Below the pieces are notes generated by a model. It did no database searches and was not told the origin of the DNA. It worked only from the letters and a program-made list of their open reading frames with translations. Positions 16,570-22,671 of a DNA stretch of 64,000 nt are shown piece after piece; the stretch's first letter is position 1, and every line of letters starts with the position of its first letter. The stretch spans positions 23,076 to 87,075 of the forward strand of contig CAZYQE010000005.1 of assembly GCA_964650315.1 (NCBI GenBank). Direction: 5' to 3'. The translations under genes were made by a program, and so were the position numbers. The DNA is from an uncultured Muribaculaceae bacterium. GTDB lineage: Bacteria; Bacillota_I; Bacilli_A; RF39; UBA660.

Positions 16570-17547
16570 TTATCGCCTAAATAGACCAAAAATTCTATTG
16601 CTATTTACATCATTCTTATTTTGGACATTAATTAATCCAAATTTAGCTAAAAACTCATCCAATATAAAATTTTTCTTTCTTTCATCCAGTGGTGGTAAAT
16701 TATAAAACATTTTTATTTTTGCTTCATATTCTAAATTGCCTACCTCTTTACCATTAAGTAAACTTCTATTTAAAACAACTTTTTTATTTGATAATTTAGT
16801 AAAAATATCTCTATTTTTTCTAATTAATTTATTTATACCTATAATACTAGGTTCTAATAAGTAGATAACTTCGTCACAAAAAGAATTATCTTTTGCCTTA
16901 TTTAAATCAACTAAAACTATAGCTTCCTTAGACAATTTTGATACTGCATCACTTAAATCATTATTAGAAACAGATATCATATCATCTTCATTAAAATAAG
17001 AAAAATCTTTACTTTCTGATTCAATAGCAACCACCCTAGTCTTTATATGTGATTGTAATTGTTTCTTTAACATATAAATTAAAGTTGTAGTACCAGCCTT
17101 TTCAGTTAAATTCTTAAATCCAATAACACTAAGACCTTTACTATCATCTTTTTTATCAGAACTAGTATCATCCTTCTGTAAATATTTAACATCTTGTAAA
17201 GTATTTGGTTTTTTTAATAAGTATTTTACTCCATCAATATTAGTAGTAAAATTATATATACCAGTTGTTACTAAATTAGAAATAAAACTAGCAGTACATA
17301 TTTCACTACCATCAGGTAAAAAGAAAATTATCTTATCAGGATCCAAACCCTTTACAATTTTTTTATAACTATCTATATTACTATAACCTTTTATAGCTGT
17401 AACATCTAAAATCATTCTATTATAAAAAAAGTTTTTAAACATCTCAACTATTTCTAAAGGATCATACTCACCATTAATACTTTTAATAATATCAATATCT
17501 AGTTCTGATAAAATATTTTTTTGCTCATTAGACACAACAACATTCAT
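16570..17547 (-). CDS. TadZ/CpaE-like protein (receiver-like N-domain + ParA/MinD-fold domain with degenerate P-loop)
   Basis: 325 aa. The C-terminal half shows MinD/ParA-like strand-helix order: VIGFKNLTEKAGTTTLIYML, RVVAIE, IVLVDLN, VIYLLEP, KVVLNRS. The Walker A Gly/Lys residues are missing. The gene sits inside the Tad module. Confidence 0.45.
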   Translation of the reverse strand: MNVVVSNEQKNILSELDIDIIKSINGEYDPLEIVEMFKNFFYNRMILDVTAIKGYSNIDSYKKIVKGLDPDKIIFFLPDGSEICTASFISNLVTTGIYNFTTNIDGVKYLLKKPNTLQDVKYLQKDDTSSDKKDDSKGLSVIGFKNLTEKAGTTTLIYMLKKQLQSHIKTRVVAIESESKDFSYFNEDDMISVSNNDLSDAVSKLSKEAIVLVDLNKAKDNSFCDEVIYLLEPSIIGINKLIRKNRDIFTKLSNKKVVLNRSLLNGKEVGNLEYEAKIKMFYNLPPLDERKKNFILDEFLAKFGLINVQNKNDVNSNRIFGLFRR

Positions 17548-17578
17548 TTTATCACCCCTTTATATTGATTTTATTAAA

Positions 17579-18046
17579 CTAATCTTCCTTTATTAATTTA
17601 GTATTTCCTGTTAATCTAAAAACCTTCATATTAGTAATTATATTGTTTACTATCGGAATACTTATATCAATAGCTGTCTCAACTTTATAATATACTTTCC
17701 TATAATCAGAACTAGTACCTACAGTACTGCCTGGAGTACCAGTACATCTTGCGACAAAATAACCATCCTTCTTAAATTTATCTTTATTAATAGGTGTACA
17801 ACCATCTGCATCACCATCAAATTGTGCAGGACTATAACCTATTTGTTGAATATAAGCATGAATTTTGTCATAGCACTCCTGATTAGTATCACATTTACCC
17901 TCATATTGTTCTATTGTGGTAATTATTTTATTTTTAACACGGAACGCCTTTGTATAACTAACATTAAACGCTAAATAACCACTAACAATAACTAGAAACA
18001 CGACAATCATAGAAATATTAATTATTCCACCAAAAGCATCACGCAT
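17579..18046 (-). CDS. N-terminally anchored pseudopilin-like protein (TadE/TadF position)
   Basis: 155 aa with a hydrophobic N-terminus GGIINISMIVVFLVIVSGYLAF and 5 Cys. It lies directly downstream of the Flp-like gene. No canonical TadE motif is present. Confidence 0.35.
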   Translation of the reverse strand: MRDAFGGIINISMIVVFLVIVSGYLAFNVSYTKAFRVKNKIITTIEQYEGKCDTNQECYDKIHAYIQQIGYSPAQFDGDADGCTPINKDKFKKDGYFVARCTGTPGSTVGTSSDYRKVYYKVETAIDISIPIVNNIITNMKVFRLTGNTKLIKED

Positions 18047-18060
18047 TTAAAACACTCCTT

Positions 18061-18282
18061 TTACATATTTACTTCATAAACATGATCTTCTGAGATAACA
18101 AAACCAATACACTTTCCGCTTGCATCTCTCTTAGTACAATTAATATCATCCCATTGAGTATTTATAGCAGTTTGGATACTTGGCCACATTATCCAAAAGA
18201 AAGTTATTACTGCTGCTATTGCTATTAAAGTAATAACTGTCAAATTTAATTCACCTGTTGCTGCTTTCATCAATAAACACAT
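18061..18282 (-). CDS. Flp-like small pilin candidate
   Basis: 69-73 aa (alternative start at 18270). It has a short leader ...MKAATG, then the hydrophobic ELNLTVITLIAIAAVITFFWIMW, and a C-terminal Cys-X8-Cys. It lies next to the TadB/TadC genes behind its own promoter. Confidence 0.5.
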   Translation of the reverse strand: MCLLMKAATGELNLTVITLIAIAAVITFFWIMWPSIQTAINTQWDDINCTKRDASGKCIGFVISEDHVYEVNM

Positions 18283-21367: not shown

Positions 21368-21402
21368 CTAACCCATCTCCCTTTTTATTCTTTAATTCTT
21401 TT

Positions 21403-22215
21403 TTATTCTCCAGTCCATACTGTCCACTCATTAATCTTATCTTTTAACTCTGAACTACTAATTTCTAATTGTCCAGGTTCATCTTTAAGACTTTCATTAG
21501 TTGGAACAGGTATTAATGAAGAATCATATGTTCTCAAATAACTAGCTTTCTTAAGTAAGATATAATAATCTTCAGGTAAAGCAAACACAATCATAGCTGG
21601 TGTTTTAGAATCATCTACATTAGAAAATACCGGTTGTCCACTACTATCTTTAACAGCTAGAACCTTAACATTTTCTATAAGTTTACCATACATGATTTTA
21701 TCTGCATCTTTATTACCTTTAGCTATTTGTTCATCTGATAATTTATTTACAGCTTTTAAATAAATATCAATATAATTACCTGGATAAATTGAGTTACCAT
21801 ACGTAGTCTCCGTATCAACAGGCATATTATATAAAACATAACCTTTAGGATAATCTAATATGATATTAGCAGGTAATTGTTCTTTTTCAACAACATTCCT
21901 AGCATAAAATAGACTTCCTTCAGGAATTACTGTATCTGCATTAGAGTATTTATCAATAACATCAGCTTGATTTTTAATAACATCACCTTTTAACATTGAT
22001 GGTGGTATATCCATAGTACCAACCATACTTTCAGTAATTTGTGTACCAGGCGATATAGTTTCCTTAGCATAAGGTACGCTAATTGGATTAATAGCTGCTT
22101 TCACACGAGCATTATATGAAATATATAAAACTACAACAGCCAATACAACTCCTAAAACAGTTACTGTATTTTTATTACCTAATAACTTTTTAATACCAGA
22201 ATTTGCATTTCCCAT
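21403..22215 (-). CDS. cpaB: CpaB/RcpC-like Flp pilus assembly protein (SAF-domain type)
   Basis: 270 aa with an N-terminal TM (VTVLGVVLAVVVLYISY). This is followed by ISVPYAKETISPGTQITESMVG...VIPEGSLFYARNVV, matching the CpaB SAF-domain pattern. Confidence 0.7.
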   Translation of the reverse strand: MGNANSGIKKLLGNKNTVTVLGVVLAVVVLYISYNARVKAAINPISVPYAKETISPGTQITESMVGTMDIPPSMLKGDVIKNQADVIDKYSNADTVIPEGSLFYARNVVEKEQLPANIILDYPKGYVLYNMPVDTETTYGNSIYPGNYIDIYLKAVNKLSDEQIAKGNKDADKIMYGKLIENVKVLAVKDSSGQPVFSNVDDSKTPAMIVFALPEDYYILLKKASYLRTYDSSLIPVPTNESLKDEPGQLEISSSELKDKINEWTVWTGE

Positions 22216-22230
22216 TTTATTCCCCTCTTT

Positions 22231-22671
22231 CTAATTCATTTCTCTTTTTATTTTACCAGCACAATATTGATCATAATGATAATTTTCTTCTAATATTGCG
22301 TCTACAGTAGTATGTATAGGTGTAGACTCACCTTTAACCTTTAGTACAGTATTAGAATCAATTTTAACACTAGCTTTAGGTGGAATTTCACTTATATCGT
22401 AAAATCCAACTGTATATTCACGAGTATTATCTACTGTATCAGCAAATCTACAAAGAAAATTTTCTACAAATTTTTCTCTATCAATTCTAAGCATACATGT
22501 TCTTCTATAGTAAGCAATATCTACTGCATCACTCATAGATGCTTCTGTTGTTTCCTTCAACAGGTAATAATCTAACTCACTACCTGTTGAATAATTAGAA
22601 ATAACATTTATCATTAATAACGCTACTAAACTTAAAAGTATAATACCAACTGTTAACATTGCCTTATTCAT
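22231..22671 (-). CDS. N-terminally anchored small protein (pseudopilin-like topology)
   Basis: 146 aa with the N-terminal hydrophobic segment MLTVGIILLSLVALLMINVI and 3 Cys. It sits between the Cys-rich giant and CpaB. No family was recognised. Confidence 0.35.
   Translation of the reverse strand: MNKAMLTVGIILLSLVALLMINVISNYSTGSELDYYLLKETTEASMSDAVDIAYYRRTCMLRIDREKFVENFLCRFADTVDNTREYTVGFYDISEIPPKASVKIDSNTVLKVKGESTPIHTTVDAILEENYHYDQYCAGKIKREMN

Follow-up and report, generated by a model that had tools for sequence, protein, structure and literature searches.

Positions 16570-22671 of the 64-kb window analysed here (G000:C5:23076-87075, from the 966-kb genome of an uncultured bacterium of the order RF39, in 18 contigs, ~25% G+C and 94% complete) encode a Tad-like module that is set within a Gram-positive type IV secretion system (T4SS) locus and has no prepilin peptidase gene of its own. 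On balance, this module probably constitutes a Tad-like sub-machine, of the type IV filament kind, working within the secretion locus, with the leaders of its pilin-like proteins p73 and p155 cut by the PilD-type peptidase of the cell, whose gene lies on another contig. The missing peptidase, for which the initial annotation had proposed either a gene encoded elsewhere or a different mode of pilin maturation, is largely resolved at the gene level, and what this analysis adds is a candidate processing enzyme together with evidence from plasmid relatives, several of which carry a small peptidase-like gene in or near the module.

Prepilin peptidase genes and the leaders of p73 and p155

No A24 peptidase is found in the 64-kb window, either by a six-frame scan with the PF01478 profile (E<=1) or with a custom A24 hidden Markov model (HMM), in agreement with the initial annotation. 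Applied to the whole genome with the same threshold, the PF01478 scan gives a single match (C9:38883-39206, 44.8 bits, cut-off 26.5), which belongs to an intact PilD-type open reading frame (ORF) of 254 aa immediately downstream of a PilC gene with two T2SSF domains, and which has both catalytic Asp motifs (VSDLTYLIIPD and GGGDVKIM) and N-terminal CxxC pairs; the custom HMM, which includes three plasmid mini-peptidases, again returns this gene as its sole match in the genome. A peptidase encoded elsewhere is hence what is found, at the level of genes. Across the order, A24 matches are present in 199 of 201 genomes, with or without the module, about 190 of the 201 having exactly one and a few relatives two. 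In the genomes with listed coordinates, the A24 and ATPase genes either stand on separate contigs or have no less than 19 kb between them, the A24 gene never adjoining the module. The A24 peptidase is a universal housekeeping gene of this lineage, always available.

The genome also encodes PilB (C2:74016-75164) and four canonical type IV pilins with MKxxKG/FTLVELL leaders (C2:31404-32467, C6:6460-6858 and C9:17824-19557), one of which is a 577-aa giant. The four pilins, PilB and the PilC-PilD pair show, by gene content, what is predicted to be a separate, conventional type IV pilus or Com-type system in this ~1-Mb genome, and the canonical pilins show a PilD pathway that is apparently in use. 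The PilD encoded on C9 is the most likely candidate enzyme for the 6-residue leaders of p73 and p155, and the module would have no peptidase of its own because the cell already has this PilD-type A24 enzyme.

The smaller of the two pilin-like proteins, p73, had been read as a 73-codon ORF (18061-18282), but the start conserved in its family is the second ATG (M5), which is preceded by the ribosome-binding site AAAGGA, and translation almost certainly does not begin at the first ATG (MCLL, 18271-18282). The family comprises more than 1000 database clusters, none of them named, and its N-terminus, MK[A/E]A[T/S]G-E-[L/V/A]-[N/S]-[L/M]-T, is nearly invariant and leads into a hydrophobic helix. The Gly and the Glu that follows it do not vary across the 19 loci aligned, the tail being variable and the N-terminus far better conserved, and MKAATG opens 110 of the 119 database homologues that have the motif. 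A conserved N-terminus joined to a free tail is, as judged from these alignments, the pattern of a pilin. The protein has neither a Flp match in Pfam nor a hit in NCBIfam, and the Flp motif G/XXXXEY is absent (Thr at +5, no Tyr at +6). Of the designation 'Flp-like' in the initial annotation, a conserved family of small pilin-like proteins therefore stands, and the Flp motif and the start codon do not. In a p73 homologue from a Parageobacillus plasmid, a basic leader of 29 residues precedes the same G-E junction, which is the outcome expected if cleavage occurs there.

The second protein, p155, is found in 18 of the 20 relatives' loci that were fetched for comparison, from different genera of the same family. 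Its N-terminal consensus is M[R/K][D/E][A/S]x[G/S], with position 6 being Gly in 15 and Ser in 3 of 19 aligned sequences. It has no match in Pfam or NCBIfam, and its hhalign comparison with DUF4320 is not significant. Although unrelated in sequence, p73 and p155 both begin with six leader residues of the pattern M-[KR]-[DEA]-[AS]-x-G, after which comes a hydrophobic helix, and both have variable C-termini in their family alignments.

Further evidence comes from plasmids. The best plasmid matches of the module ATPase are gene 37 of pLS20 ('tadA', 36.7% identity), which has been termed VirB11 (PMC8557374), and proteins of Bacillus cereus-group plasmids. A fuller module is present on the Parageobacillus plasmid NZ_CP063416, on Priestia NZ_CP061869, and on B. 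thuringiensis pBMB57 and pSY27.1_8, in the order SLH protein, large surface protein, DUF5411, CpaB/SAF, AAA (ParA-like), CpaF/VirB11-family ATPase, T2SSF, hypothetical protein, small protein and DUF4320, and these plasmid modules adjoin TrbL/Tcp/VirD4 genes. Several Bacillaceae plasmids encode, inside the module or up to ~5 kb upstream of it, a 'hypothetical protein' of 150-175 aa resembling A24 peptidases, in which both Asp motifs are kept (TD[IV]K and [AP]GD[TI]KM). Its gene heads the string in pSY27.1_8, just upstream of the SLH gene, and follows DUF4320 in Parageobacillus; by tblastn, 328 plasmid records carry a homologue, and 323 of these are from Bacillus. These mini-A24 ORFs appear to form an unannotated family of mini prepilin peptidases, and they provide the strongest indirect evidence that this module family relies on A24 processing, with the version in gut Bacilli drawing on the PilD of the cell. 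They also fit the view of the initial annotation that in Gram-positive bacteria the peptidase gene usually lies near the tad locus. In pBMB57, an ORF upstream of the SLH gene (L056:4881-5276) keeps the second A24 motif (SPGDTKM) and has no N-terminal part with the first Asp, and would be either a truncated mini-peptidase or the product of a mis-called start.

Components and setting of the module

The standard code (11) gives a clean reading of the genome, and all nine ORFs of the module are present, on the minus strand and in one tight string, so that the contiguity reported in the initial annotation is confirmed. The gene order—DUF5411, CpaB, ATPase, TadB-like, TadC-like, p73, p155, TadZ-like, VirB2-like—is the same in 20 of the 20 relatives' loci, which rules out a chance arrangement.

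The ATPase, which has an orthologue (E<1e-100) in about 165 of the 201 genomes of the order, matches the VirB11 (1e-31) and TadA (3e-29) models of NCBIfam, both under their equivalog cut-offs. Among solved proteins in the PDB it is closest to FlaI (9e-20), followed by Caulobacter CpaF (2e-18), in alignments of residues 5-256/306 that span the N2 domain and the ATPase core, whereas the match to VirB11 (2e-13) is restricted to the core. Because the FlaI/CpaF alignment is both longer and stronger, 'CpaF-like' fits this protein better than 'VirB11'. The C-terminal tail (window 20081-20290) is rich in Pro, Ala and Lys, and orthologues range from 363 to 570 aa, mostly owing to this tail, which is, from these lengths, a variable appendage in the lineage.

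The two polytopic membrane proteins encoded after the ATPase, TadB-like and TadC-like, have no match in Pfam or NCBIfam, and a six-frame T2SSF scan of the genome (E<=1) detects the true PilC on contig C9 alone. Their kinship with platform proteins is reached through the plasmids: the TadB-like family profile matches the plasmid TadB group, including pLS20 p38 (hhalign 99.2%, E 6e-20), and the TadC-like profile matches plasmid proteins in the TadC position, including pLS20 p39 (98.8%, E 7e-17). The plasmid TadB group in turn matches genuine PilC T2SSF at 83.7% and plasmid TadC at 76.6%, one of its members, from Parageobacillus, scores 26.6 bits against T2SSF in Pfam (cut-off 25.2), and two of these plasmid proteins are named T2SSF-family by NCBI. 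The narrow-profile hhalign comparison of TadB-like with TadC-like is not significant, distant TadB-like relatives drawn from a library of 1.8 billion proteins have no T2SSF match in Pfam, and sequence-profile searches of the PDB with the TadB-like and TadC-like alignments give nothing useful. The two proteins are here taken as putative remote TadB/TadC-type platform proteins, by a transitive link.

The CpaB-like protein matches RcpC (2.3e-6, 27.9 bits, cut-off 28.8) and SAF (0.011) in Pfam and TIGR03177 in NCBIfam (7e-9, 35.3 bits, cut-off 71), in every case below threshold; its plasmid homologues are annotated CpaB/SAF, and a PDB search with the single sequence gives nothing useful. The DUF5411 protein, with an N-terminal membrane anchor followed by a helix and then a beta domain, is pseudopilin-like in look; it is found in 17 of the 20 relatives' loci and occupies the same position in Bacillaceae plasmids and, as p36, in pLS20.

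The model of the TadZ-like protein made with AlphaFold2 (AF2) has a flavodoxin- or receiver-like N-domain and a ParA/MinD-fold C-domain, the latter matching ParA, HypB, BcsQ, FleN and MinD in Foldseek (probability 1.0, E 1.7e-5 to 5e-3); no TadZ structure is among the top 50 fold matches. In this model, such a combination of domains is the predicted architecture of TadZ/CpaE. The protein has no match in Pfam or NCBIfam, ParA-like families included, a PDB profile search with its alignment gives nothing useful, and the narrow-profile hhalign comparison with the plasmid AAA ATPase is not significant. The P-loop of the family reads G-x-K-N-x-T-x-x-A-G-x-T-T (AGTTT here, AGATT in most relatives) and the lysine of GK[ST] is absent, which suggests a nucleotide-binding and probably non-hydrolysing scaffold.

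Around the module, the T4SS genes lie downstream and the surface genes upstream (Table 1), with the sortase and the Cys-rich protein occupying the position where the plasmids have the SLH protein and the large surface protein. GreA (29678-30169) marks the upstream edge of the island, and beyond it stand housekeeping genes (HD hydrolase, U32, methyltransferase, YceG/MltG). As the genes upstream of 29658, from GreA on, are housekeeping genes, the island is chromosomal, and this flank supports a chromosomal over a mobile context. Among the same housekeeping genes, ~15 kb upstream of the module, is a rhomboid intramembrane protease (37210-38352, Pfam 4e-35), so that the sortase, which the initial annotation called the only protease-like enzyme in the array, is not the only such gene in the window; two U32 peptidases are also encoded in it (32401-34442). 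In this AT-rich DNA, promoter and terminator scans yield candidates no more often than shuffled sequence does, and the promoter-like site ahead of p73 is, taken alone, weak evidence of a putative promoter.

Table 1. Genes and sites of the locus, with positions in the window, and mini-A24 ORFs of plasmid relatives, with positions in the respective plasmid loci (L numbers)
Feature	Positions	Strand	Basis or remark
DUF5411 protein, 146 aa	22231-22671	-	Pfam PF17424 1.7e-46; first gene of conserved core
CpaB/RcpC-like protein, 270 aa	21403-22215	-	N-terminal anchor and putative SAF domain; 20/20 relatives' loci
CpaF/TadA-FlaI-clade secretion ATPase, 428 aa	20081-21367	-	Pfam T2SSE 3.5e-26, above cut-off
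TadB-like polytopic membrane protein, 300 aa	19164-20066	-	hhalign to plasmid TadB group
TadC-like polytopic membrane protein, 260 aa	18382-19164	-	hhalign to plasmid TadC-position proteins; paralogue-like partner of TadB-like
p73 mini-pilin-like gene, 69 aa	18061-18270	-	MKAATG/ELNLTVITL...; start ATG at 18270
p155 pseudopilin-like protein, 155 aa	17579-18046	-	MRDAFG/G leader, then hydrophobic helix and globular domain
TadZ/CpaE-like protein, 325 aa	16570-17547	-	AF2 model, predicted local distance difference test (pLDDT) 83.9
Promoter-like site TTGTTA-17-TGgTATAAT	18326-18354	-	within 99-nt gap upstream of p73
Gram-positive T4SS genes: two VirB2-like, TrbL/VirB6, VirB4, CHAP/lysozyme hydrolase, VirD4	5994-16511	-	downstream; Pfam
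Cys-rich secreted protein, 904 aa	22682-25396	-	homologues upstream in 8/20 relatives' loci
Class-B-like sortase	25383-26204	-	Sortase Pfam 6.7e-7, TIGR03064 6e-17
Ig-like surface protein	26236-28041	-	upstream in same gene string
DUF4352 surface protein	28051-29658	-	upstream in same gene string
Mini-A24 ORF, B. thuringiensis pSY27.1_8	L072:2434-2952		weak PF01478 match
Mini-A24 ORF	L054:15573-16094		weak PF01478 match
Mini-A24 ORF	L003:4129-4587		weak PF01478 match
Mini-A24 ORF	L055:4420-4938		weak PF01478 match

Proposed working and competing explanations

In the working proposed here, the module would be a built-in part of a T4SS locus of the pLS20/pAW63 type that has become fixed in the chromosome of genome-reduced gut Bacilli. 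Its CpaF/FlaI-clade ATPase, presumed hexameric, would dock onto the two divergent TadB/TadC-like platform proteins, while the CpaB-like protein and the TadZ-like protein with its degenerate P-loop may assist in positioning or scaffolding the complex. The PilD encoded on C9, also serving the four canonical pilins, would remove the MKAATG and MRDAFG leaders; the machine would then polymerise p73 into a short, wall-crossing fibre or pseudopilus, with p155, and possibly the DUF5411 protein, as minor subunits or anchors, and the adjoining T4SS would use this fibre for contact or for forming its channel. Leader cleavage, PilD as its agent and filament formation are all three inferred.

Several points weigh against this working. 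The junction, G/E with Thr at +5, matches neither the canonical site of PilD (G/FTLxE) nor that of TadV (G/XXXXEY), and the leaders of p73 and p155 are acidic or neutral, whereas those of the canonical pilins of the genome are basic, of the KG type. The DUF5411 family has no conserved Gly junction. On pLS20 there is no A24 gene, nor do its small proteins have a G-leader, and the mini-A24 ORFs of the other plasmids remain below threshold in PF01478 (20-24 bits against 26.5). As to the platform proteins, the direct hhalign comparison of TadB-like with the genome's own PilC is not significant with these narrow profiles, the link to T2SSF being transitive only, and the AF2 model of TadB-like is poor (pLDDT 69), its Foldseek matches being meaningless. 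Since A24 is near-universal in the order, presence and absence cannot tie it to the module, and in the literature found, a filament of this module family has not been observed.

Part of this evidence also speaks for the main alternative, namely that p73, p155 and the DUF5411 protein are never cleaved and act as signal-anchored subunits of the T4SS inner-membrane complex, with a VirB11-like ATPase energising or gating the channel, and with no pilus formed and no peptidase needed. Thus the pLS20/pAW63 homologue is treated in the literature simply as a VirB11, the state of pLS20 itself, the missing Flp motif and the lack of a DUF5411 junction all agree with uncleaved proteins, and a 6-residue N-terminus could be a mere cytoplasmic stub. 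Against this reading, two proteins without sequence kinship share one conserved leader with an invariant Gly at its end, and in the plasmid homologue of p73 a long basic leader precedes the same GE junction. Many plasmid versions, moreover, encode their own A24-like enzyme within the operon, and the ATPase, closer in sequence to CpaF and FlaI than VirB11, is accompanied by T2SSF-like platform proteins, which are absent from VirB11 systems. Uncleaved subunits are, for these reasons, rather unlikely, albeit far from negligible.

Cleavage of the leaders by another protease, independently of A24, is improbable. The non-canonical junction would leave room for it, and candidates exist in the sortase of the gene string and the rhomboid, with signal peptidase I as a third. 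However, a 6-residue leader without a hydrophobic core before the cut is unfit for signal peptidase I, the rhomboid gene lies outside the island, beyond GreA, and the modules of plasmid relatives carry A24-like genes and not other proteases. The sortase, at which the initial annotation had hinted as a maturation enzyme, has no support in this role and is rejected on mechanism, as sortases cut C-terminal signals of the LPXTG type, whereas p73 and p155 vary at the C-terminus and hold no such signal there, their conserved feature being the Gly-ended leader at the N-terminus.

Least probable, to the point of being very doubtful, is a second, dedicated TadV-like peptidase, either lost from the assembly with the remaining ~6% of the genome or too divergent to be detected. 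In its favour, completeness stands at 94% over 18 contigs, divergence takes the plasmid mini-A24 ORFs under the Pfam cut-off and a few relatives do have two A24 matches, but the custom HMM with the three plasmid mini-A24 sequences finds the C9 gene only, exactly one A24 match is the rule in the order, and the flanks of the module are fully assembled, with housekeeping genes bounding the island.

With leader processing by PilD as the preferred reading, a Tad module without a peptidase turns out to be ordinary, one PilD being kept for all class-III leaders of the cell. The interest lies rather in the module itself, a Tad-like filament machine that would be hard-wired into Gram-positive T4SS loci, and which bears on how, in monoderm bacteria, a T4SS without VirB2/VirB5 pili gets across the wall and establishes contact. 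As a tentative possibility, T4SS of the pLS20/pAW63 lineage might build their mating or contact fibre by an embedded Tad-like machine and not from VirB2/VirB5, using a mature pilin of ~45-65 residues with a new G/E junction that is cut by whichever A24 enzyme is available (a mini TadV on plasmids, the housekeeping PilD here). If so, such a fibre would be the long-sought equivalent of the 'conjugative pilus' in monoderm bacteria. Most members of a family with ~1-Mb genomes retain the module, and the plasmid versions have their own unannotated mini-peptidase, which makes the hypothesis testable in pLS20/B. subtilis.

Relation to known systems

The closest likeness is to the 'VirB11 region' of Bacillus conjugation operons of the pLS20 family and of the pAW63/pXO2 type (pLS20 genes 36-41; pAW63 CDS 19-23), and to the related plasmid modules of Bacillaceae. 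They likewise have a DUF5411-like anchor, (a CpaB/SAF protein), the ATPase, two membrane proteins of ~250-300 aa and small N-anchored proteins, and they also adjoin VirB6/TrbL, VirB4 and VirD4. Both the gene order beside VirB6, VirB4 and VirD4 and the homologous ATPase and membrane proteins place the module among the T4SS accessory modules of the pLS20/pAW63 type. In the conjugation literature on pLS20 and pAW63, the ATPase is equated with VirB11 and its neighbour genes have no known role; in the literature searched, no paper describes pLS20 genes 36-41 as Tad-like and none tests whether Bacillus conjugation depends on a prepilin peptidase. In contrast with these plasmids and with the Bacillaceae plasmid modules, the module here is chromosomal and largely kept across a family of ~1-Mb gut Bacilli, and its upstream surface genes encode a sortase and a Cys-rich protein, with no SLH protein or thioester adhesin. 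It further differs from the plasmid modules in that the TadZ-like gene follows the pseudopilin gene instead of standing between cpaB and cpaF, with the Walker-A lysine lost, in the absence of a mini-A24 gene, and in the 6-residue leader of the pilin-like protein.

With Tad/Flp (type IVc) systems, such as Cpa of Caulobacter and Tad of Aggregatibacter, the module shares the CpaF-type ATPase and, as candidate counterparts, the CpaB-like protein, two putative single-domain platform paralogues in place of one PilC, a predicted ParA-fold protein of TadZ-like architecture, and a very small pilin-like subunit accompanied by larger pseudopilin-like proteins. The Flp leader ends in ...DESG, and the leaders of the module likewise end in acidic-x-Gly. 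Unlike Tad/Flp, the module has G/ELN(L/M)T at the junction instead of G/XXXXEY, no TadV/CpaA in its locus, platform proteins that Pfam T2SSF does not detect, presumably neither secretin nor TadD, as would suit a cell with one membrane, and a T4SS locus around it. The label 'Tad-type' of the initial annotation is thus probably fair as to how the module works, but not as to canonical membership, given the absent Flp motif and platform proteins too divergent for Pfam.

A system of CpaF, PilC/GspF and DUF5411 has also been predicted in the Clostridia Roseburia, Ruminococcus and Eubacterium, where it is uncharacterised (Miller et al. 2022, PMC9523054). As far as its description allows, the module resembles it in combining DUF5411 with a CpaF-type ATPase in Gram-positive gut bacteria, whereas PilC/GspF is recognisable in that system, which also includes an internalin-like protein and for which no linkage to a T4SS is described. 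Overall, the module is best filed as a Tad-like sub-module of Gram-positive T4SS loci of the pLS20/pAW63 type.

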